39,720 nt of DNA from a virus (IMGVR_UViG_3300030397_000422:1-39720); one strand, 5' to 3'; positions 3,207 through 17,470 are shown, counted from the stretch's first letter. Numbers and translations: made by a program. Notes: a model not told the origin generated them from the letters alone.

Positions 3207-3409
3207 CAGTGTTGCCTCTGACTTGTCAGGTGCCAGTTACCGCACATTGGGCACTGGTAGTAAGCCACGCATCCAGCCCGCTTGCCTTTCTTCAGGGCCT
3301 GCCTGGCCTCTCGCTCACTGAGGTATTTGCGCTTTGCACAGTAGGTGCCATTCTCATCCTTGATAAACGGCACCTTACCCCACTTATTACCCACGCTATT
3401 TGTTCTCAC
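3206..3409 (-). CDS. Small zinc-ribbon protein (67 aa)
   Basis: C-terminal YYQCPMCGNWHLTS with upstream Cys residues. Basic composition. Confidence 0.65.
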   Translation of the reverse strand: MRTNSVGNKWGKVPFIKDENGTYCAKRKYLSEREARQALKKGKRAGCVAYYQCPMCGNWHLTSQRQH

Positions 3410-3845
3410 GGGCCAATCTCTTTTTCAGGCCCTTAGCACCCGGGCTATTCTCACCAGTCCTGCTTTTGCAATACGCTATATACCCGGGCATGTTTAGATT
3501 TTCTTTTTGTGTGCCCCATTTTAGATTTTCGGGCTTGTTGTTAAGGGCGTTTTCATCAAGGTGGATAACAACTGCTCTATCGAATGGTGGCGGCCCATGA
3601 AAAGCCTCGCACACCAATCGATGAACTTTTATATTTCCATAAAACTTGGTGATCATTCCCATGTGTTGGTGCCTAGCATTCTTAGAAGCCTTGGTCTTTG
3701 TTCCATAGGTGGGATTTGGTTTGTATTCCCTCACCCCACCATTTGGCATGGCTGCCTTTCTAGGAGGCAGCAGAACTCTCCCTAAGCTACTAGCCATAAT
3801 TCCCGGCTTTGATGGCACCTTTTTCCAAACTTCAATTTTAGACAT
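3396..3845 (-). CDS. HNH homing endonuclease (149 aa)
   Basis: ORF-track 3396..3944 trimmed to ATG 3845 (MSKIEVWKKVP...). NUMOD4-like N-terminus (EVWKKVPSKPGIMASSLGRVL). HNH_3-type core VHRLVCEAFHGPPP...VIHLDENALNNKPENLKWGTQKENL. Locally AT-richer than its neighbours. Sits between ssb and a small gene. Confidence 0.85.
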   Translation of the reverse strand: MSKIEVWKKVPSKPGIMASSLGRVLLPPRKAAMPNGGVREYKPNPTYGTKTKASKNARHQHMGMITKFYGNIKVHRLVCEAFHGPPPFDRAVVIHLDENALNNKPENLKWGTQKENLNMPGYIAYCKSRTGENSPGAKGLKKRLARENK

Positions 3846-3871
3846 GATAAACTTCAATTTTAGACATGATA
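3828..3871. repeat. Perfect 22-bp tandem duplication spanning the HNH start codon
   Basis: aacttcaattttagacatgata occurs at 3828..3849 and again at 3850..3871. On the minus strand this reads ATCATGTCTAAAATTGAAGTTT twice. Confidence 0.9.
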
Positions 3872-3882
3872 ATAAATCATAC

Positions 3883-4335
3883 CTAAAAAGGTATGTCGTC
3901 CTCAAAGTTGTCGAAATTGCTTGGCGCAGAGGCGCTACCCGCACTCCCTGCGGGCTGCGCTGCTTGCGCCGGTGGGGCCGATTGGCTTGCTCCTTGCTGG
4001 GGGGAGGTATTCCGCGAGTCCAGCATCTGCAGGTTTTGCACCACGATTTCAGTCATGTAGTGCTTCTGGCCATCTTGTTCCCAGTTTCTGGTCTGGAGCT
4101 TCCCTTCCACATAGACCTTGCTGCCCTTCTTCAGGTATTGCTCAATGATTTCAGCAGTGCGCTTGAATGCCACCAATTTGTGCCACTCAGTCTTTTCCTT
4201 CTTCTCGCCGTCCTTCTCCCAGGTCTCGCTGGTAGCGATACTGAAATTGGCCACGGCATTGCCGTTAGGCATGTATCTGACTTCTGGATCACCGCCCAGA
4301 TTCCCAATAATGATTACTTTATTCACTCCCGACAT
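3883..4335 (-). CDS. ssb: Single-stranded DNA-binding protein
   Basis: Bacterial-type OB-fold N-terminus ([31 protein letters not shown]...[13 protein letters not shown]), G/Q/P/A-rich linker and the canonical acidic tip NFEDDIPF. Confidence 0.95.
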
Positions 4336-10706: not shown

Positions 10707-10954
10707 AAAAACTGCTTTTGATTTGCATACTCTTCACCCTGGCCAGCTGTGCTGCATGGTCTGAAATGGGCCAGACTGGTGAACCACCCCCTACCCTGGT
10801 CAACCAGTACAAAGCCACTGTGAAAATGGTGGAAGAGCCCAGGGTAACCCGGGAAATCTGGAACTTTGTTGCCAGGAAACTACGCGCTGCCACTGAGATT
10901 ATCGATAGTGAGGGCATCGACTTAGTGATCGAGCACCCTGAACCTGAAGAGTGA
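10703..10954 (+). CDS. Lipoprotein, o-spanin-type candidate (83 aa)
   Basis: MKKLLLICILFTLASC is a signal peptide plus lipobox (L-A-S-C). Pro-rich stretch GEPPPTL. Overlaps both neighbours by 4 nt. Confidence 0.55.
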   Translation: MKKLLLICILFTLASCAAWSEMGQTGEPPPTLVNQYKATVKMVEEPRVTREIWNFVARKLRAATEIIDSEGIDLVIEHPEPEE

Positions 10955-11400
10955 ACCTAGTCCAAATCAAGCCCATGTCTATGAATCAGGCATGGCGAGC
11001 GGTACCAGTTAAGAACCGGCCAGGGATTGCACGCAATGTGAAGTCTCGGCCGTACCGCAAATATGAAATGGATGTATCACTCCAGCTGCCGGCCACTTTC
11101 AAACTACCCCCGCCACCCTATGCCATCTATCTGGAATTCGGTCTCAGCAATAAGAATGCTGACTGGGATAATCCTATTAAGCCGTTTGTCGATATCCTGC
11201 AGGCCCGCTACAAATTCAATGACAAGGAAATCAGGACTGCCCTGGTAACTAAGGTGATTGTGACTAAGGGGCAGGAATACGTGAGGTGGGATATTGTGAC
11301 CCAGCGCGAGACCATCCTGATTCGAATGGTCCGCGCTATCTGGGAAAAGATTGTTGGCTTATCGCCGTTTGGGGTAGACACCAGCGCGTCGAGCACGTAA
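10951..11400 (+). CDS. rusA: RusA-family Holliday junction resolvase (149 aa, GTG start)
   Basis: IKPMSMNQAWR...KSRPYRKYE...LEFGLSNKNADWDNPIKPFVDILQARYKFNDKEI...KVIV matches the RusA pattern (PxSxN..., DxDNxxKxxxDxL, DDxxI). GTGA overlap with the previous stop. Confidence 0.75.
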   Translation: MNLVQIKPMSMNQAWRAVPVKNRPGIARNVKSRPYRKYEMDVSLQLPATFKLPPPPYAIYLEFGLSNKNADWDNPIKPFVDILQARYKFNDKEIRTALVTKVIVTKGQEYVRWDIVTQRETILIRMVRAIWEKIVGLSPFGVDTSASST

Positions 11401-11586
11401 CCGGCGCTTTTTCTGAGATACCCTGTTAGTCCCTGGCTGCAGCTTCGCAGCTGGTCTCATTACCAAGGGCGCAAGCGGCCCTGGATTGCGTATCTTTCGC
11501 TCCACTGTTGCTACGCCTGATGGTGCTGACATTGATGCGGCTACCAATGCTGATAGTGCGGCTAATTTAGTGCTGTGAATTGTCAT
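11359..11586 (-). CDS. Possible small exported basic protein (75 aa)
   Basis: AGGAGA SD 6 nt upstream of ATG 11586, overlapping the stop of the MTase gene. N-terminus MTIHSTKLAALSALVAASMSA is signal-peptide-like, and the rest is Pro/Arg-rich. The last 42 nt run antisense into rusA, so its reality is uncertain. Confidence 0.35.
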   Translation of the reverse strand: MTIHSTKLAALSALVAASMSAPSGVATVERKIRNPGPLAPLVMRPAAKLQPGTNRVSQKKRRLRARRAGVYPKRR

Positions 11587-11596
11587 AGTCTGTCTC

Positions 11597-12400
11597 CTAA
11601 GCGAGTTGGAATACGCCAGGGGCTACTCTATCACACAGCTGAGCAGCCACCTGCCGGATTTTCTCCCGCCAAAATGGGTTGTTAGTAGGTCGGTTGTTTT
11701 CTATCGTGCGGTACAGCTGATCCAGTGACGCCCTGCCGCCATTTACTCGCATAGCAGCGTAGACAGTCTCCTTCCATACACTGGCCCTGGATCGGTTGCC
11801 AATGAAGCGCTCGCGGTACTCCTGTTTCATACTCTCCAGCGCTGCCACCTCGCTGTACAGGAAGAATCCCGATAGCTGTGTTTTCCTATCCTTGATAAAC
11901 GTGGCGAAGCATAGGGGCTTGGTCATATTCTGGAATAGGTTGCGGGGCAGCAGCTCCTGGCCAATGCTCCACTTCTCAGCAAAGCGCATAGTGGTATTGG
12001 CGGTCTGGAAAAAGTACACCGGCAGAATGAATCCTGCTTTCTGCTCATATTCCAGCAGCTCATATATCCTGGCCATGAACTCTTCGAATAGCTTGGCTTT
12101 GAATGGCGGGTTACCAAATACCACAGTGGGGCGATCCGGTAGCTCAGTTGTCAGAAAGTCTCCAGTGATGATATCCCGGCCCGTGTTCTGCCTTGCGAAC
12201 TCTGCCTGCAATGGGTCCACTTCCACCCCTATGCCAGCCACGTGGTCAGGCACGGCCATGAGTAGCCTGCCATCCCCGCAGCTGGGATCGAGCACGCAAT
12301 CACTGCCACTGAGCCCAGGGAAATGCCTGCGCAGTAGCAGCTCAGCTGCCCATGTTGGCGTGTAATACTGATCCAGTGCAGATTGTTTGTATTGTTTCAC
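11597..12400 (-). CDS. N6-adenine DNA methyltransferase (267 aa, GTG start)
   Basis: QYYTP (motif X), VLDPSCGDGRLL (motif I, SAM), FGNPPF (motif IV) in X-I-IV order. ORF-track 11597..12451 trimmed to GTG 12400 with GGGAGGA 4 nt upstream. GTGA overlap with the RHH gene stop. Confidence 0.85.
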   Translation of the reverse strand: MKQYKQSALDQYYTPTWAAELLLRRHFPGLSGSDCVLDPSCGDGRLLMAVPDHVAGIGVEVDPLQAEFARQNTGRDIITGDFLTTELPDRPTVVFGNPPFKAKLFEEFMARIYELLEYEQKAGFILPVYFFQTANTTMRFAEKWSIGQELLPRNLFQNMTKPLCFATFIKDRKTQLSGFFLYSEVAALESMKQEYRERFIGNRSRASVWKETVYAAMRVNGGRASLDQLYRTIENNRPTNNPFWREKIRQVAAQLCDRVAPGVFQLA

Positions 12401-12624
12401 CCTATCCTCCCAGCGTCTCTCAGACCCCTGCGCACCTGGCGCTCTATCCAATCTGCCAGGCTGATACCCTTAGCCGTTGCCTCTGACTTGGCCAGCTCCA
12501 GCAGCATGGTGTTAAACCGGCATGAAAGCCTGCCATCCCTGGCAAAAGCTTTCTTAGCGTGAGTGTTACCCTTCAGGTGCCGGTGAGTTTTCTTAGTCGG
12601 TCCCTTCTTGTTGTCCCTTCTCAC
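12397..12624 (-). CDS. Ribbon-helix-helix (CopG/Arc-like) protein (75 aa, GTG start)
   Basis: ORF-track 12397..12864 trimmed to GTG 12624 with AAGGAGG 6 nt upstream. Basic N-terminus, then RLSCRFNTMLLELAKSEATAKGISLADWIERQV, a beta-strand/helix/helix pattern. Confidence 0.55.
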   Translation of the reverse strand: MRRDNKKGPTKKTHRHLKGNTHAKKAFARDGRLSCRFNTMLLELAKSEATAKGISLADWIERQVRRGLRDAGRIG

Positions 12625-13051
12625 GGGTAGCCTCCTTAAATTGCGCGAAGCGCTGCTCATAGTTGCCATGGCCAAACCAGCTATCGTTGCGCTCGCACCA
12701 CTGCAGGAATTGCTTGATGGTCTCAGCCTCACCGGTATAGAGGTTTTCCCACACATAGCCGTAGACCTCATCGGCATTGGGGCCGCATACCCTTGCACCT
12801 TGGGCCAGCAGGGTGTAATTGCGCTCCCCCAGTACCGGCAGCGGGTCATTGATATCACCGCCACCGGTTACCCAATCCTTATGAAAGCATGGCTCAGCCT
12901 GCTCATCGCGCACCAGATCGTGGGTGTTAGCGCCTTCAGTGTCATAGTCTCGCTGTATCACTTTCAAGCCATCAGGGGCCTTCACCAGCTCAGCTATGCC
13001 GCCGCGTATCTCGATCACTAAATCTGCTTTATCGATTGTTAAGCTACCCAT
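12593..13051 (-). CDS. Hypothetical protein (152 aa)
   Basis: ORF-track 12593..13090 trimmed to ATG 13051 (MGSLTIDKADLVIEIRGG...) with GGAGGTG upstream. No domain recognised. Confidence 0.7.
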   Translation of the reverse strand: MGSLTIDKADLVIEIRGGIAELVKAPDGLKVIQRDYDTEGANTHDLVRDEQAEPCFHKDWVTGGGDINDPLPVLGERNYTLLAQGARVCGPNADEVYGYVWENLYTGEAETIKQFLQWCERNDSWFGHGNYEQRFAQFKEATREKGQQEGTD

Positions 13052-13274
13052 AGAACACCACCTCCGGCAGGTATTGGAGATTGCCGTCACCGTCCCAGGT
13101 TAGAACCCGATCCCGTGTATAGGCATCAGCCCATTGAAATTCACACAGATTACAATTCACTGGCTGATAGACCTCATTGCCATCTACCTCTAATTGCCCA
13201 TGGTGCAGGTCCTCACCCTGGCAGCGAGGGCACACCAGCCCGTAGAAATGCTTATACTCATTGAAACAAATCAT
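13044..13274 (-). CDS. Zinc-ribbon protein (76 aa)
   Basis: CPRC ... CNLC pairs. AGGAGG SD inside the end of the upstream mini-ORF. Confidence 0.7.
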   Translation of the reverse strand: MICFNEYKHFYGLVCPRCQGEDLHHGQLEVDGNEVYQPVNCNLCEFQWADAYTRDRVLTWDGDGNLQYLPEVVFYG

Positions 13275-13276
13275 AT

Positions 13277-13393
13277 TCAGCCTCCTAAGAACGTGGCGAA
13301 GGGTGCCAGCAGGATCAGGATCGCCAGCGCTACCCCTACCGCAAAATCATCCCGTAGCTGCTCGCGCTGCTCGGGGGTTAGTTTGTTTTTCAT
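13277..13393 (-). CDS. Mini membrane protein (38 aa)
   Basis: ATG 13393 (MKNKLTPEQREQLRDDFAVGVALAILILLAPFATFLGG) with a C-terminal TM. Its 20-nt initiation region CAACTGGAGATAGACAGATG is a 19/20 copy of that of the ArdC-MTase gene (16207..16188). Confidence 0.45.
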   Translation of the reverse strand: MKNKLTPEQREQLRDDFAVGVALAILILLAPFATFLGG

Positions 13394-13420
13394 CTGTCTA
13401 TCTCCAGTTGCGTGGCGTAA

Positions 13421-13468
13421 TTGCCACCAGTGCAGCGTCTCGATCCGTGAGACGCTACTAGCTGGCAA
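13421..13468 (-). repeat. Intercistronic structured repeat, copy 1 (extended hairpin right after the DUF932 stop)
   Basis: Minus-strand read: TTGCCA-G-CTAGT-AGCGTCTC-acggatc-GAGACGCT-gc-ACTGG-TGGCAA. It starts at the base after stop TAG (13471..13469). Flanks are shared with copy 2 while the apical stem differs but stays complementary. No U-tract. Confidence 0.8.
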
Positions 13469-14599
13469 CTAGGCCGCTACTGCGTACTGTCCCTCCCATT
13501 GGCGTAGGTTGAATGCCAGAATCTGAGCGCCGATATCCTCCAGCTCGCAGGCCCGGTCATAGTCGGCCAGCTTGGGATCATTGGCCACCTGGGTAACTGC
13601 AGCGTGCAAGCCAAACTGGCTATAGTCACCATCCTGCAGGAACGTGGTCAGGATCGACTCGCGCTCGCTGTCTCTGAGGTCTAGCTCTTTGATAGCCATA
13701 TCAACGGTAGCTGTGGGGTTAGCTGCCTGTGATGTGTTGGCGGCCGCTCTCAGCTGTTCAACCATCTGGCCCACAAACTCAGGATTAGCCAGCGCTTGAA
13801 TGCCATCGCGCACCTCAGCCACGATTGCGGCATCCTGCTTTTTGCGCGTATCGTCGCTGACTATCTCGAAATCAGTACCCTCGATTAGCTTGCCCCCAAT
13901 ATGGTTGCGGCTAAAAGTGAAGACAGATTCCTTACCAAATACACATCCATTGGTGCAGTACCCGTCATAAAAGAAACCCTCGAACTTGAGCGAGCCGTTA
14001 CCCGTCTCTGAATTGCTGAGTCTGAATCCCGGCTTGATAATGCGGGGCTCACCTGTGCGCGTGCGGCGTGTTATCTCGTGCCCCATATCGTCACCAGTGA
14101 ATAGCACTTTGAGATTCATGCGATCATCAGAGACATTGCCGCCGAGTACCTGGGTAGGCAGGTCTGGGCGATTCATAATGGCAGGGAGAGTAGCTTCTAA
14201 TACTTCGAAGTTATCTAGCGTGCGATAGCGATCGCTCATAAATGCACGGGCCTTACCAAACAAGGTGCGCACCATGCGGCGGGACGGTTCGCGCTGGAAT
14301 AACGCATTGACCTCAGCCTCTATCAGGTCAGGGTGCGATTGAGTCAGGCGCTGATAGTGCTTCCATGGGATATTCAGTTTCGCTGCTATCTGGCGCTGCA
14401 TGTTCTCAGTCGCTGCCCAGTTACCGCCCTCGACGCCTGCCAGGGTGAAGCGCTGCTCATTGCGCTGCTCACCGTCCTCGATCACAGTCTCGTGAGTGAT
14501 GCGCATAGCGTCCCGAGTATTGCCGACGAAATCACGCTTGGCGCGGTTTTGCTCCAGTACAGTTCCGATAAGTGTTTTTAAATCTGATCCTAATTGCAT
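13469..14599 (-). CDS. DUF932-family protein (376 aa)
   Basis: ORF-track 13469..14818 trimmed to ATG 14599 (MQLGSDLKTL...) with GAGG upstream; the longer form would overlap the previous gene by 140 nt. DUF932 hallmarks: DRYRTLDNFEVLE, DDRMNLKVLF, PGFRLSNSETGNGSLKFEGFFYDGYCTNGCVFG. Confidence 0.85.
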   Translation of the reverse strand: MQLGSDLKTLIGTVLEQNRAKRDFVGNTRDAMRITHETVIEDGEQRNEQRFTLAGVEGGNWAATENMQRQIAAKLNIPWKHYQRLTQSHPDLIEAEVNALFQREPSRRMVRTLFGKARAFMSDRYRTLDNFEVLEATLPAIMNRPDLPTQVLGGNVSDDRMNLKVLFTGDDMGHEITRRTRTGEPRIIKPGFRLSNSETGNGSLKFEGFFYDGYCTNGCVFGKESVFTFSRNHIGGKLIEGTDFEIVSDDTRKKQDAAIVAEVRDGIQALANPEFVGQMVEQLRAAANTSQAANPTATVDMAIKELDLRDSERESILTTFLQDGDYSQFGLHAAVTQVANDPKLADYDRACELEDIGAQILAFNLRQWEGQYAVAA

Positions 14600-14634
14600 T
14601 TTGATTACCTCAATTAATTGATAAACGGGGCGAA

Positions 14635-14677
14635 TTGCCACCATTGCAGCGCCCCGCAGGGCGCTACTAGCTGGTAA
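14635..14677 (-). repeat. Intercistronic structured repeat, copy 2 (hairpin right after the ArdC-MTase stop)
   Basis: Minus-strand read: TTACCA-G-CTAGT-AGCGCCC-tgcg-GGGCGCT-gc-AATGG-TGGCAA, 1 nt after stop TGA (14681..14679). An alternative pairing GGGGCG...CGCCCC followed by GTTTAT is also possible downstream. Confidence 0.8.
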
Positions 14678-14678
14678 C

Positions 14679-16190
14679 TCACAGTGAGTTGAATAGGTCT
14701 TCCAATGAGCTGGGCATCTCTTCAACGGGCTCAGGGCTCGCTGCAGTGAATTGCTCAGGTGCTGGGATATCTGCAGCCTCTGGCGCTGGCTCGCGGTGCT
14801 GGGCCTCGCTAGGGGCATCGATCACCAGCATTACAGTGTGCACGTTGGTGCCTGATTTCTTGAACGCGCCTGCTGGGATCGCTTCCACAGTGTGATCAAA
14901 CTGCTGCAGCCATTCGCGGAACTCACGTGATTTGGCATTGTCGCGGGTCTGCCAGCTGGGGCTCATAATGGCCACCAATCGGCCCAGCTCACCCAAAAAG
15001 CCGAATGCGTGGCGCACGTGGTCGATATCCTGCTGATTCTCGAATGGAGGATTCATTATCACGCGATCAACGTCACCAGACTGGCCAAGGGTGAGGAAAT
15101 CACAGCACACCACTTGATGGCCCTTTTTGTGTGAGATATCAGCCAAGGTGCTGTTAATCTCCACTCCAGTGGCCTTGACGCCTGCCAGTGCTTGAATGGC
15201 GTCGAGTAGTTCACCCTCTCCACAGCTGGGCTCTAGCACTTCCATGCCTGCCCAAATGTCGGCCGCGTCAATCATGCGGTGCTGCAACTCTTTGTTTTTA
15301 GTGGCGAAATGGCCGGGAATGTCAGTGAATTGTAGGTGTTCGACTTCGCGCTGTAGCTCTTCAGCCTGCTTTTGCTCTTCGCTCTTAGGCTTGAGCAGTG
15401 CCCAGAGTGCGAGCGTTTTGGGATCATCTAGGCGGGGTTCACCATTGCCCACGGGGTAGCTGTGAAAGCCATTCTGGGCGTGGGTGCTCTTCTCTCCCAT
15501 GCGCTCATAGATTGCCTTTTTAGTGTTGAATCCAGCTATTAGCGGGTCTGGCGTGCCTGATTCCCACTGATCCGCAAGCACTCGCATTACCTGCTGAGTG
15601 CGCTGCAGTCTCTCACCCTCAAACCGCGCTGACATAGCCTGACCGAGGCGCTTGGCTGTATTGGTCTGGCGATCGGCGAATTTATCATCTATCTGGGCCT
15701 GCAGGTTATCAGCCAGGGTGCGCAGTTTGTCGGCGGTGCGACTTTTAATCTGGGCCTCGCGCTCGCTGCTGGTGTTTTGCTCATAGGCTTGAGCTACCAC
15801 CCGGCCCGCGCTGTCGGTCATATCGTTTTCGGGTGCTCTAACTATTACTGATTCGCTCAGATCGCCAAACTTGCTGAGTGTCTCTTCAGCTGTGATTGGC
15901 TTAGCCTCGGCCGCAGTAGTCTCTGGCTTGGCTTTCCAGTCGATCAGGTCGCAATTGAATACAGAAAAGCCCTTGCGGCGCTTGCCGCCCTTCTCAGGCT
16001 CGACAATCACACGGAATAGGCGAATGCCCTTTCCCTTGGCTGGCTGGTTAAATGCTCCGCCATTGTCGGCCATCTGTCGGAATGTGACCCAGCAGCCTGC
16101 GCTGTAGCCGTTTTCCTCTAGTGCCTGCTGCAGTGCAGCCTCATTGCTGCCCGTGTATTGGGCCTTGCTGATTGGATTAAAATGTATCAT
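14679..16190 (-). CDS. ArdC-N (DUF1738) ssDNA-binding domain fused to N6-adenine DNA methyltransferase (503 aa)
   Basis: ORF-track 14679..16253 trimmed to ATG 16190 (MIHFNPISKAQYTGSNEAAL...) with GGAGA upstream. N-terminus YTGSNEAALQQALEENGYSAGCWVTFRQMADNGGAFNQPAKGKGIRLF is the ArdC N-domain pattern. The C-terminus carries VLEPSCGEGELL (motif I) and IMNPPF (motif IV). A long helical linker lies between them. Confidence 0.85.
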   Translation of the reverse strand: MIHFNPISKAQYTGSNEAALQQALEENGYSAGCWVTFRQMADNGGAFNQPAKGKGIRLFRVIVEPEKGGKRRKGFSVFNCDLIDWKAKPETTAAEAKPITAEETLSKFGDLSESVIVRAPENDMTDSAGRVVAQAYEQNTSSEREAQIKSRTADKLRTLADNLQAQIDDKFADRQTNTAKRLGQAMSARFEGERLQRTQQVMRVLADQWESGTPDPLIAGFNTKKAIYERMGEKSTHAQNGFHSYPVGNGEPRLDDPKTLALWALLKPKSEEQKQAEELQREVEHLQFTDIPGHFATKNKELQHRMIDAADIWAGMEVLEPSCGEGELLDAIQALAGVKATGVEINSTLADISHKKGHQVVCCDFLTLGQSGDVDRVIMNPPFENQQDIDHVRHAFGFLGELGRLVAIMSPSWQTRDNAKSREFREWLQQFDHTVEAIPAGAFKKSGTNVHTVMLVIDAPSEAQHREPAPEAADIPAPEQFTAASPEPVEEMPSSLEDLFNSL

Positions 16191-16221
16191 CTGTATATCT
16201 CCAGTTGTTTGAAGTTTTGAT

Positions 16222-17241
16222 TTAGCAGGTGCGCGAGTCGCAAGCATTGCCACCCTGGCCCTGCAATTCCTTAGCGCGTTTCAGGCAGTGCGCCCGATCC
16301 GCTATAAATTCGCCAGTTTCCCACGCCACTATTCCTTCCTCACGGGCCCAGCGATTCCAGCTCAATTTACGGCCCAGCCCCACGGTGCAGCTAGTGCTTG
16401 GCCATTGTTTCGATGGCGTGTTGACTATCTCAAGCCAGTCCTCGCCATAGTTACACTCTTCCTTATCCCAGCGGGAATGCTTGCCCAGCATGGCCGTATG
16501 CTCCATTTTGAGCGCTTCTAGGAATAAGTCGGGATGCGTGCCAGCCAGCCAAAACAATTCCCATTTTTGGGAAGCTGGGCAGAAATAGCAGGCTGATTTT
16601 ACCGGGACCGGCAGCCCTTCAGCTTCGATCCTGGCTACACACTCAGGCCGCGCCCAGCCCAGTGACTGCAGCGGGTAGCGGTATAAAAAATCGTTGTCTT
16701 CGGTCTTGACCTTGCTGGATCGGCGAATATCTGCCTTGCCGTTATCGTAGCCGATCAGCTTAATGATTTTGCGGCCGGTGCTCTGGGCTTCCAGCCATAG
16801 CGGGTGCGGCTCGCACTGATTAGGGCCCTTTGTGACGCCCTTTAGCAGATTATCCTGTGGGCCTTGCTTCCACTTGATCGAGCACGATTTCATGCCGAAT
16901 GCGAGGCTTGGCAGGGTCTCATTATGGGTGCAGTTGCCGCCTAAATCATTGTAGGGCGTGGTGGGGAGCGTGGCTTTCTTGCACACCTGGACCAGTGGCC
17001 AGCCCTTGATGGCTAGCCAGTGATTGAGAATCCAGCGGTATTGCAGGGTCTCTGGCTTTTCCCCGCCAGTATCGGCGAAGGTGATCAGGTCCGGCTTAAT
17101 GCCGTGATCGTGCAGGGCCAGCAGCATTGCGGTGCTATCGACGCCCAGCCCGGCGCATACGTTGATGCGGTGGCCGACAGCCTGCAGCGCTTTCAGCTCT
17201 TCCAGTGGTCCTATCTGCCTTGCTTGAATTGCTTGGGTCAT
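16222..17241 (-). CDS. PAPS-reductase / DndC-like ATP-pyrophosphatase superfamily protein (339 aa)
   Basis: VCAGLGVDSTAMLL (variant of the SGGxDS PP-loop), FADTGGEKPETLQY, SCSIKWKQGP and KSACYFCP follow the PAPS_reduct family order. It is the first gene of the leftward island. Confidence 0.75.
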   Translation of the reverse strand: MTQAIQARQIGPLEELKALQAVGHRINVCAGLGVDSTAMLLALHDHGIKPDLITFADTGGEKPETLQYRWILNHWLAIKGWPLVQVCKKATLPTTPYNDLGGNCTHNETLPSLAFGMKSCSIKWKQGPQDNLLKGVTKGPNQCEPHPLWLEAQSTGRKIIKLIGYDNGKADIRRSSKVKTEDNDFLYRYPLQSLGWARPECVARIEAEGLPVPVKSACYFCPASQKWELFWLAGTHPDLFLEALKMEHTAMLGKHSRWDKEECNYGEDWLEIVNTPSKQWPSTSCTVGLGRKLSWNRWAREEGIVAWETGEFIADRAHCLKRAKELQGQGGNACDSRTC

Positions 17242-17286
17242 ATTGTGGTTTCCCTTTGGTTAATCCCGTGTTTTGTGGATTGGGGT

Positions 17287-17317
17287 AGTATAGCGCTGTA
17301 TGTACACCCATTGCCAA
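17287..17317 (-). promoter_or_regulatory. Candidate leftward promoter of the island
   Basis: Minus-strand read: TTGGCA (17317..17312), 19-nt spacer, TATACT (17292..17287), about 45 nt upstream of ATG 17241. The spacer is long, so the match is weak. Confidence 0.3.
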
Positions 17318-17361
17318 GTATTTCGGCAGAATAATCCACATAATGAAGGACTAATTCGCAG

Positions 17362-17409
17362 CCACTATATGTAGTGGTATTGGCAAAGCTGATCTACATT
17401 ATGTAGTAT
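17362..17409 (+). promoter_or_regulatory. Two palindromes plus candidate rightward (late) promoter
   Basis: CCACTA-tatg-TAGTGG (17362..17377) and CTACAT-t-ATGTAG (17394..17406) share the ATGTAG half-site. TTGGCA (17380..17385), 18 nt, TAGTAT (17404..17409); the second palindrome covers the spacer and -10. Confidence 0.35.
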
Positions 17410-17470
17410 TCGCTCATTAGACGGATTCACGCGCAGCCCAGAGAGGGCGCAGCATTACCTTGATCACCCT

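Follow-up and report, generated by a model that had tools for sequence, protein, structure and literature searches.

A compact nine-gene operon of probable mosaic origin, with candidate counter-defence genes, beside the packaging genes of a P22/Sf6-like phage

Gene map, junctions and repeated elements

The window, which is the whole 39,720-nt stretch of DNA analysed, comes from an uncultured P22/Sf6-like phage, and the island described here is a compact single operon of nine genes (5.9 kb, A to I) adjoining the DNA-packaging genes. Its site is probably a recombination-prone module boundary, with the lysis cassette and a RusA-like gene on one side and the packaging genes on the other. The first-pass annotation had described one tightly coupled minus-strand operon starting from a divergent region at 17242-17470, and this is borne out by the ORFs and by an independent gene caller, which returned the same nine products (339, 503, 376, 38, 76, 152, 75, 267, and 75 aa) on an identical 9.7-kb Logan contig. 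The features are as follows (evidence in parentheses):

17242-17470, no strand: putative divergent control region, 229 nt, between gene A (leftward) and an Sf6-type TerS gene (rightward) (sequence and repeats)
11359-17241, minus: whole island, nine ORFs, all with plausible RBSs (ORF calls)
16222-17241, minus: gene A, 339 aa, SspD/DndC-like PP-loop enzyme of the PAPS-reductase superfamily (phrog_424, PADLOC SspD, Foldseek)
16187-16207, minus: 21-nt RBS/start box CAACTGGAGATATACAGATGA at the start of gene B (repeat search)
14679-16190, minus: gene B, 503 aa, ArdC-N, long linker and N6-adenine methyltransferase domain, polyvalent-protein type (Pfam, PDB, PHROG)
15918-16160, minus: predicted ArdC-N ssDNA-binding domain of B, aa 11-91 (ArdcN, PDB 6i89)
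14712-15317, minus: methyltransferase domain of B, aa ~292-493 (motifs EPSCGEG and NPPF)
14600-14678 (conserved core 14633-14674), minus: two-hairpin element, copy 1, B/C intergenic (-35 kcal/mol, z -4.4)
13469-14599, minus: gene C, 376 aa, DUF932-family (phrog_1362, tblastn)
13394-13468 (core 13419-13465), minus: two-hairpin element, copy 2, C/D intergenic (-34.6 kcal/mol, z -4.6)
13277-13393, minus: gene D, 38 aa, charged N-terminus, then a single hydrophobic helix (translation, gene call)
13044-13274, minus: gene E, 76 aa, zinc-ribbon-like, four cysteines (CPRC...CNLC) (sequence)
12593-13051, minus: gene F, 152 aa, two domains (exhaustive HMMER, alignment)
12863-13039, minus: N-domain of F, aa 5-63 (HMMER)
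12611-12838, minus: C-domain of F, aa 72-147 (HMMER)
12397-12624, minus: gene G, 75 aa, GTG start, very basic N-terminus (sequence, gene call)
11597-12400, minus: gene H, 267 aa, candidate N6-adenine DNA methyltransferase of the F116 gp09 type (identity, PHROG, Pfam)
11359-11586, minus: gene I, 75 aa, hydrophobic N-terminal stretch, Arg/Lys-rich C-terminus (phrog_32548 8.7e-6, gene call)

A and B are separated by 31 nt, a 32-nt overlap arising only if B is started at the GTG at 16253. Gaps of 2 and 10 nt lie between D and E and between H and I, E overlaps F by 8 nt, F overlaps G by 32 nt, and G and H share a GTGA overlap through which they are predicted to be translationally coupled. At the distal end, I overlaps the convergent RusA-like ORF by 42 nt. 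The B/C and C/D junctions (79 and 75 nt) each contain a conserved two-hairpin element, in which stem sequence differs between the copies while pairing is retained; copy 1 has no T-run and is therefore not an intrinsic terminator. The 21-nt box at the start of B recurs with 20 of 21 positions identical at the start of D (13390-13410), a pairing matched in none of 200 shuffles. The ~48-nt hairpin element thus flanks C, the 21-nt box flanks B and C together, and these direct repeats are a cassette-like bracketing of C and of B+C. The divergent region contains short direct repeats (TATGTAGT, two copies) and inverted repeats; a consensus promoter scan of its 229 nt returned a single match, a sigma-70-like site on the plus strand, and none for the minus-strand island.

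Family assignments of the island products

Gene A had been labelled a PAPS-reductase/DndC-like PP-loop enzyme, and several lines of evidence agree with this. It matches phrog_424, 'PAPS reductase' (5.7e-20), and its best specific profile is the PADLOC SspD model PDLC02782 (E 8.8e-11), a partial match covering aa 149-262, about one third of the protein. Pfam PF01507 gave no match even at E<=1; hhalign of A against a PF01507-positive partner family gave a probability of 92% (E 7.5e-7) and paired its PP-loop with the SGGKDS of PF01507-positive proteins. The AF2 model of A (pLDDT 82) has the adenine-nucleotide alpha-hydrolase/PP-loop fold as predicted, with LarE, CysH, APS/PAPS reductases, GMP synthetase and TtuA as its top Foldseek matches (probability ~1.0, TM only 0.3-0.5). 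The PP-loop G31-x-G33-V-D-S-T37 is invariant in 29 family members, and conserved cysteines are found at positions 120, 201, 218, 221 and 339, including Cys218-x2-Cys221; FADTGxEKPET, the CxxC and the C-terminal cysteine are all retained. A family-specific C-terminal extension of ~90 aa ends in ...GGNAxDxRTC. With 2579 relatives, A is a widespread candidate counter-defence enzyme. No PADLOC model for a DndA/D/E or SspA/B/C partner matched any of the nine island proteins, and a PHROG scan of 20 other proteins of the window likewise gave no Dnd/Ssp partner.

The two methyltransferases are likewise as first described. In B, an ArdC-N domain matches Pfam ArdcN (PF08401, 1.8e-8, above cut-off) and the ArdC structures PDB 6i89/6sna (3.4e-5, aa 11-91), and the protein also matches the methyltransferase family phrog_15406 (5.3e-54). 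The zincin metalloprotease domain (MPTase-PolyVal) found no match in B with Pfam or PHROG; because its C-terminal half is a methyltransferase and not a metalloprotease, B is an ArdC-N fusion only, not an ArdC. Only three other proteins cover at least 90% of B, and more than 5000 plasmids, among them 3750 conjugative ones, carry a match to its methyltransferase domain. The linker+methyltransferase module is embedded in PHROG families of 1200-3900 aa and is found fused to LPD29 and other heads. H is over its full length 57% identical to the methyltransferase of Pseudomonas phages F116, AUS531phi and others, matches phrog_5172 and phrog_799, and scores exactly at the cut-off of Pfam N6_Mtase. By its sequence, H carries DPSCGDG and NPPF, and both proteins show PSCGxG followed by NPPF, which correspond to the predicted SAM-binding motif I and catalytic (D/N)PP(Y/F) motif IV of N6-adenine methyltransferases. 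In F116 and AUS531phi, homologues of H sit in early-left methyltransferase arrays, with none of the other island genes.

The assignment of C to DUF932 stands on phrog_1362 (1.3e-35) and on full-length identity of 29-33% to plasmid products carrying the PGAP name 'DUF932 domain-containing protein' (tblastn, E to 6e-51), though Pfam DUF932 (PF06067) did not match C itself; a distant relative adjoining an A homologue does match PF06067 (1.5e-7). Relatives of C occur in conjugative-plasmid gene arrays together with ssb and DUF3768.

The smaller products are less readily placed. D, for which no family matched, and E keep their labels of hydrophobic peptide and four-cysteine ribbon. For E, the Lar restriction-alleviation model TIGR03655 scores 14.6 bits (E = 0.031), short of its 39.6-bit cut-off. 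F had been listed as a 152-aa unknown; the product is present, and it resolves into two domains. A search of 5.8 billion proteins gave no close relative of F, no Pfam family matched it, and both of its domains are also found within giant proteins of 900-3090 aa. G had been called an RHH protein, a label that found no backing: its C-terminal half is RHH-like by eye only, no RHH match was obtained in Pfam, PHROG, NCBIfam or PADLOC, the sole PDB match is a designed repeat protein, and BLASTP with an Arc query gave no alignment. I is possibly an exported peptide, to judge by the appearance of its sequence. The plasmid leading-region and polyvalent-protein flavour noted at first pass is evident in the plasmid distribution of the B domain, the conjugative arrays of C and the giant proteins containing the domains of F.

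Neighbourhoods of gene A elsewhere

A survey of A-bearing loci in IMG/VR covered 68 loci, of which 44 are non-redundant, and in none did the nine-gene set recur. The repeated partners of A are a canonical PAPS reductase (14-15 of the 44), a phrog_757 methyltransferase (8 of the 44) and terminase genes. As a raw count, a methyltransferase (verified seeds or phrog_757) lies within 5 kb of A in only ~9-10 of the 44. Among the 68 loci, a B-type methyltransferase was present in one (L062) and DUF932 was confined to one clade (L052-L059). Other neighbourhoods of A hold full ArdC, DUF3560, DUF932, phrog_757 methyltransferases and C5 methyltransferases, and in KB12-38 an antirestriction protein, methyltransferases and two PAPS reductases share an operon. 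A frequently leads a divergent operon, followed in L092 by a 75-aa HTH_3 gene. Pieces resembling the small genes are scattered among these loci: a stretch 43% identical to E lies 2.8 kb downstream of an A homologue in L070, and the N-domain of F occurs alone 1.6 kb downstream of another in L080.

The co-occurrence of a PAPS-like enzyme, a methyltransferase and DUF932 therefore held in part: the full set never recurs, and A with a B-type methyltransferase is kept in one other phage lineage. In that lineage (L086/L087) a single operon, divergent from an Sf6-type TerS gene, keeps A (58% identity) and the B-type linker+methyltransferase (44% identity) despite deep divergence. Conversely, A occurs with no methyltransferase nearby in L090, L091 and L092, and L085 has a full-length B homologue with A absent nearby. 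PAPS-like enzymes do recur beside DNA methyltransferases of several unrelated families: such adjacency is seen in the window, L086/L087, L070, L072, KB12-38, the 8 of 44 phrog_757 loci, and a fusion protein of Vibrio phage 44E38.1. This recurrent link could reflect true biochemical coupling, beyond co-location.

Interpretation and relation to known systems

In our reading the island is probably an accessory operon of mosaic make-up, whose counter-defence (anti-restriction) genes act mostly independently. A mosaic origin is suggested because the set is never repeated, homologues of H, C and B occur in separate contexts, E-like and F-N-like pieces are scattered, and repeats bracket C and B+C. 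Against this reading stand the recurrent link of PAPS-like enzymes to methyltransferases, should it mark real coupling, the overlaps along the run from E to H, which fit co-inheritance and coupled expression, and the fact that an activity can be assigned to only four of the nine products. In such an operon, B and H would shield phage DNA from cutting by host restriction systems through methylation of its adenines, and ArdC-N would tether the methyltransferase of B to incoming or replicating (single-stranded) DNA. A would be an ATP-using, probably Fe-S-dependent enzyme of DndC/SspD type that either modifies phage DNA or disturbs phosphorothioate-dependent defence of the host, an analogy drawn from the PAPS::Dam anti-Dnd protein of the Vibrio phage. 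It may also work with a methyltransferase beside it. C, D, E, F and I may be further small counter-defence factors of polyvalent-protein type, and G may regulate H or the operon. As it adjoins TerS, likely the pac region, the island may lie close to the DNA end that a headful phage packages last and injects first.

Rather unlikely, in our judgement, is a two-enzyme module in which A and the adjacent B (perhaps with H) jointly protect phage DNA and the other genes are unrelated cargo; it might be a two-gene counterpart of the PAPS::Dam anti-Dnd protein, or a modification joining adenylation or sulfur chemistry to methylation. Retention of both genes in L086/L087, the adjacency of PAPS-like enzymes to methyltransferases of at least four other families, and the 44E38.1 domain fusion with its genetic evidence of anti-Dnd activity all point this way. 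However, the low count of nearby methyltransferases, the loci with A or the B-type protein on its own, and the distance between A and the 44E38.1 PAPS domain (hhalign probability 57%) weigh against it, and a methyltransferase family that varies case by case fits hotspot co-location better than a fixed pair. The first-pass annotation went further and proposed that all nine genes form one new multi-component system for DNA hypermodification or shielding. The single operon, gene overlaps, common junction elements and the fact that every assignable part touches DNA would suit this, but we think it very improbable: the set is absent from the 44 non-redundant A loci and from the examined surroundings of C, H and B homologues (H and C being found in unrelated contexts), F is without close relatives, and DndA/D/E and SspA/B/C partners are missing from the island.

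Two readings that leave counter-defence aside have a slimmer chance still. In one, A would be an auxiliary metabolic gene unconnected with DNA, a (P)APS reductase of cysH-like kind raising sulfur assimilation in the host, and the methyltransferases would be unrelated neighbours; A does keep the PAPS-reductase motifs (PP-loop, FADTGxEKPET, CxxC, C-terminal cysteine), and phage PAPS reductases are commonly annotated in this way. Its best specific profile is nevertheless SspD and not Pfam PAPS_reduct, its C-terminal extension is specific to its family, its neighbours are DNA-directed with no sulfur-assimilation genes nearby, and the literature now tilts to DNA modification or anti-defence. Comparably slight is the chance of a lysogenic-conversion or defence module that shields the lysogen from other phages, for example by methylation-linked or DUF932-mediated exclusion. 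The moron-like site between lysis and packaging genes, with its own putative control region, would accommodate this, and phage resistance has been suggested, speculatively, as a role of a plasmid DUF932 gene in a preprint; against it, no nuclease or other effector turned up in the island, where PADLOC matched only SspD-like and methyltransferase models, and no integrase or repressor appeared among the ~29 window proteins scanned. ArdC-N and orphan methyltransferases are, moreover, classic offensive tools.

The island had also been said to match no nameable system, which is too strong, because an anti-Dnd fusion of a PAPS domain with Dam has been published and the literature notes PAPS reductases among the genes of Aca-regulated anti-defence operons. 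With the anti-Dnd genes p0018/p0019 of the Vibrio crassostreae podophage 44E38.1 swapped in, the phage plates on a host that carries Dnd (Piel et al. 2022; preprint 10.1101/2021.05.05.442762). A variable region of this ~37-kb podophage resembles the island in uniting a PAPS-family PP-loop module and an N6-adenine methyltransferase. There, however, both are fused in one 479-aa protein (p0018, PAPS_reduct + Dam, Pfam-confirmed) and not encoded by separate genes, the PAPS domain aligns with A in the PP-loop region only, the methyltransferase is Dam (PF05869) and not of the B or H families, and neither ArdC-N nor DUF932 is present. DndC, an Fe-S protein, acts as an ATP pyrophosphatase (PMC8569181), and BREX type 4, with its PP-loop member BrxP, makes phosphorothioate (PMC12914056). 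A resembles DndC/SspD in its PADLOC match, its PP-loop fold and its conserved cysteines, including the CxxC in the region aligned to SspD/PF01507 proteins; it differs in its added C-terminal extension and in an island that lacks cysteine desulfurase, DndD/DndE and SspB/SspC.

The early-left arrays of F116 and AUS531phi similarly bring several methyltransferases together, including the F116 gp09 relative of H, and that of AUS531phi holds a Lar-type restriction-alleviation gene; unlike the island, they lie at another genome position and have no PAPS-like enzyme, ArdC-N or DUF932. With the polyvalent proteins that phages and conjugative elements encode (Iyer et al. 2017, cited in PMC13551039) the island shares the linker+methyltransferase module of B and the domains of F, which both occur in giant proteins, but its domains are spread over separate small genes rather than one giant chain. 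Conjugative plasmids, in the anti-defence islands of their leading regions (Samuel et al. 2024, PMC11541004), likewise have ArdC-N, orphan N6A methyltransferases and DUF932 in small, packed genes transcribed from one end. B differs from ArdC of R388 (PMC7213743) in having no metalloprotease domain, and the island belongs to a dsDNA phage, not to ssDNA conjugative transfer, its early entry being presumed. If it does lie near the first-injected DNA end, the island would be a phage analogue of the plasmid leading region.

Layout and genomic setting of the island

Among the genes of the window's early operon, which runs leftward, are Erf, SSB and HNH genes; a rightward block comprises an O-like gene, NinB, an amidase endolysin, a lipoprotein and, ending at 11400, a RusA-like gene. 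From this rightward block, the gene order continues through the island to TerS, TerL and the portal gene. The HNH endonuclease gene (3396-3944) adjoins SSB and Erf and, as listed, runs into the beginning of the SSB ORF. No deposited phage exceeds 39% identity to TerL, and in a megablast search with the island and with 25 kb of the window, none of 50,697 phage records matched; the lineage is an uncultured one. A scan of the window found no Rfam family and no tRNA.

The first-pass annotation described a compact nine-gene operon on the minus strand, and ORFs, independent gene calls and junctions all confirm that observation; an independent gene caller, run on an identical 9.7-kb Logan contig, returned the same nine island products.

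Genes of the island, each with a Shine-Dalgarno-like sequence
Gene A, 17241-16222, minus strand, 339 aa, PAPS-reductase/SspD/DndC-like PP-loop enzyme
Gene B, 16190-14679, minus strand, 503 aa, ArdC-N::N6A methyltransferase fusion
Gene C, 14599-13469, minus strand, 376 aa, DUF932 family
Gene D, 13393-13277, minus strand, 38 aa, hydrophobic peptide
Gene E, 13274-13044, minus strand, 76 aa, four-cysteine ribbon
Gene F, 13051-12593, minus strand, 152 aa, two-domain protein
Gene G, 12624-12397, minus strand, 75 aa, GTG start
Gene H, 12400-11597, minus strand, 267 aa, GTG start, second N6A methyltransferase
Gene I, 11586-11359, minus strand, 75 aa

Neighboring genes overlap by 8 nt (E/F), by 32 nt (F/G) or through GTGA (G/H), or are separated by gaps of 2 nt (D to E) and 10 nt (H to I). 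The 3′ ends of gene I and of the convergent RusA-like ORF (10951-11400) overlap by 42 nt (window 11359-11400), and one of these two calls may be too long; the PHROG match of the RusA-like ORF is confined to aa 4-116.

In the spacer between B and C, and again in that between C and D, lies a conserved element, CCAGCTAGTAGCG-stem/loop-GCTGCA(A/C)TGGTGGCAATT, which in the window is confined to these two places. The copies of this ~48-nt two-hairpin element lie at 14633-14679 and 13419-13470, on either side of gene C. The two copies fold with z = -4.4 and -4.6, their first hairpin stems differ in sequence while pairing is kept, and no T-run follows the element, for which no match was found in IMG/VR or in the 88 other loci compared. 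A 21-nt RBS/start box, identical at 20 of 21 positions, is repeated at the starts of B (16187-16207) and D (13390-13410), a pair that none of 200 shuffles reproduced, so that B and C together are bracketed by direct repeats, and gene C alone is bracketed by the two-hairpin copies. B+C and C are thus bracketed like exchangeable cassettes, and these two repeat sets, the signature of cassette shuffling, give a clear, small-scale illustration of the shuffling of such islands.

Between A and a divergent small terminase gene of the Sf6 type lie 229 nt (17242-17470). This region holds TATGTAGT twice (at 17368 and 17400), a 19-nt imperfect direct repeat (at 17345 and 17420), and near-palindromic stretches close to 17289-17300 and 17394-17404, all of them possible operators. 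A promoter scan of the region gave no minus-strand sigma-70 site, and its matches overall were not above those in shuffles.

Genes B to I

The earlier labeling of B as an ArdC-N::N6A-methyltransferase fusion holds. Its ArdC-N domain is recovered by Pfam (1.8e-8) and by comparison with PDB ArdC (3.4e-5), and its methyltransferase domain belongs to a type that also forms part of giant polyvalent proteins (phrog_15406 at 5.3e-54, among others). Members of this methyltransferase family are found on over 5000 plasmids (3750 conjugative) and in 220 phage records; the fusion to ArdC-N is rare, at least 90% of B being covered by only three other proteins. A true ArdC was rejected for B because the protease domain is missing. 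The second N6A methyltransferase, H, was likewise correctly recognized and shares 57% identity, along its entire length, with the F116 gp09 methyltransferase.

Gene C belongs to phrog_1362 and is 29-33% identical to plasmid proteins named DUF932; its single-sequence AF2 model (pLDDT 42) is too low to use. The 152-aa F, initially listed as an unknown, is indeed uncharacterized and appeared to be an ORFan in a word-indexed search, but exhaustive HMMER searches show it to be a fusion of two small domains. Each of these is widespread in free-standing form (60-100 aa) and is also found within proteins of 900-3090 aa, including one giant protein of 2742 aa with 16 matched stretches. The N domain is marked by IRGGIAELV...RDYDxEGA and the C domain by RNYxL...FGHGNYE, and neither is in any Pfam family. 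Searches for related loci with C alone and with F alone found nothing. E is a four-cysteine ribbon whose Lar match falls below cut-off. The RHH assignment of G was not upheld, as profile, PDB and pairwise tests were all negative, and no informative relatives were found for D or I.

The gene A family and its neighborhoods

The PAPS-reductase/DndC-like label first given to A is borne out by matches to phrog_424 "PAPS reductase" (5.7e-20) and to the PADLOC SspD model (8.8e-11). A itself has no Pfam match, its family is without a Pfam model, and its profile gave only spurious PPR matches against PDB sequences. Its predicted model (pLDDT 82) resembles LarE, APS/PAPS reductases, GMP synthetase and TtuA (Foldseek probability ~1, TM 0.3-0.5). 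The 2579 relatives detected are metagenomic (55-78% identity for the best 120 of them), and among deposited phage genomes none reaches 80% coverage of A. The family spans unrelated phage backbones and is far better conserved than they are. Its invariants include the PP-loop (GxGVDST), FADTGxEKPET, KSCSIKWK, a CxxC pair (C218/C221) and a C-terminal RTC, and full-length members carry at the C-terminus an extension of ~90 aa that ends GGNAxDxRTC.

Divergent operons often have A as their first or second gene. A canonical PAPS_reduct (PF01507) paralogue lies immediately upstream of A in 14-15 of 44 non-redundant loci, and such a pair also lies at L070 (9222-11023), L072 (8926-11029) and L091 (5954-8011); the stop and start codons of the pair often overlap. 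Profile-profile comparison of A with this frequently preceding protein gave a probability of 92% and aligned the PP-loop, C120 and CxxC; in the window, the partner is absent from all six frames. One small-terminase family is divergent from A in 12 of the 44 loci. A phrog_757 "DNA methyltransferase" is near A in eight of them, a label resting on PHROGs only, as the family matched nothing in Pfam or among PDB sequences. The closest long relatives, in which A is 67-73% identical, combine a PAPS_reduct-A pair with overlapping stop and start, a nearby C5 methyltransferase, and divergent packaging genes. In locus L092 (7001-8263), an A homologue opens the operon and is followed directly by a 75-aa HTH_3/HTH_31 gene, a layout that resembles anti-CRISPR/Aca pairs. 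Pseudoalteromonas phage KB12-38 (record 42970-53074) has, in one operon, an annotated antirestriction protein, a methyltransferase, an A-like PAPS reductase, a DNA-ligase adenylation-domain protein, a second PAPS reductase and a C5 methyltransferase. On a 39.8-kb contig, an A homologue adjoins ParA- and ParB-like partition genes and a NERD nuclease, so that the family resides on plasmid-like or phage-plasmid elements as well.

Competing readings and known systems

The proposal that all nine genes act as one DNA-modification or shielding system is not supported: the set recurs in none of the 68 IMG/VR loci with A relatives (44 non-redundant), and homologues of C, H and B lie in separate contexts. 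Those of H are found in the methyltransferase arrays of F116 and AUS531phi, those of C in plasmid arrays with ssb, DUF3768 or relaxase genes, and a full-length B homologue occurs without A. Near A, an E-like ribbon and an F-N-like domain each occur singly downstream, in two relatives, and DUF932 (Pfam-confirmed) lies 1.3-3.3 kb downstream, confined to one distant clade (L052-L059). A B-type methyltransferase appears once among the 68 loci (L062, 8 kb away). The anti-restriction flavor noted at first reading fares better in part. A neighborhoods elsewhere include full ArdC, DUF3560, DUF932, SNF2 and methyltransferases, and an independent lineage (L086/L087) keeps, in one operon, A (58% identity) and a 748-aa B-type linker+methyltransferase protein (44% identity). 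That operon is divergent from an Sf6-type TerS and has a phrog_757 methyltransferase just upstream of A. A narrower pairing, in which A works with a methyltransferase, would accord with this arrangement and is a possible but rather unlikely reading. The island is best read as a mosaic anti-defense island, which we consider fairly probable, and as a whole it is of an ordinary kind, a gathering of counter-defense genes at a hotspot of the kind made by phages and plasmids.

Within such a mosaic, B and H would most likely methylate adenines of the phage DNA and so evade restriction, and the ArdC-N domain of B, by analogy with the ssDNA-binding role derived from R388 ArdC work (PMC7213743), probably guides its methyltransferase to DNA that is single-stranded or just entering. 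Like DndC and SspD, A most likely relies on ATP and an Fe-S cluster, and it may act either by marking DNA or by interfering with immunity that depends on phosphorothioate. As the partner genes are missing, a modification module of the Dnd or Ssp type was rejected.

P22-like headful phages begin packaging at pac, within the TerS gene, and inject first the DNA that was packaged last. If this rule applies here, the island would lie close to the end that enters the cell, led by its promoter, making it a phage analogue of a leading region.

The most interesting part of the island is the A family, which is very widespread, strongly conserved and known almost only from metagenomes. Tentatively, and with rather low confidence, we propose that A represents a large uncharacterized family of phage DndC/SspD-like Fe-S PP-loop enzymes that install a non-methyl (e.g., sulfur-containing) DNA mark or disable host phosphorothioate-based immunity (Dnd, Ssp, BREX type 4), often with a neighboring methyltransferase or PAPS-reductase paralogue; on this reading, the conserved place beside terminase genes would put A on the first-injected DNA. 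Phage PAPS reductases are mostly uncharacterized (PMC11437467). The role of A, once shown, would explain many "PAPS reductase" genes now labeled metabolic in phage surveys, and could bring to light either a novel DNA modification in phages or an inhibitor that acts generally on phosphorothioate-based immunity.

Among known systems, BREX type 4 produces phosphorothioate (PMC12914056). A demonstrated role for phage PAPS-domain proteins comes from one distant relative of A only, and it is anti-Dnd: in Vibrio phage 44E38.1, a PAPS-domain::Dam fusion and a neighboring gene allow escape from host Dnd (Piel et al., 2022, preprint 10.1101/2021.05.05.442762). The PAPS and Dam domain content of this fusion was confirmed here. 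More broadly, a 2026 NAR paper places PAPS reductases, predicted to be DndC/SspD homologues, in Aca-regulated anti-defense operons.
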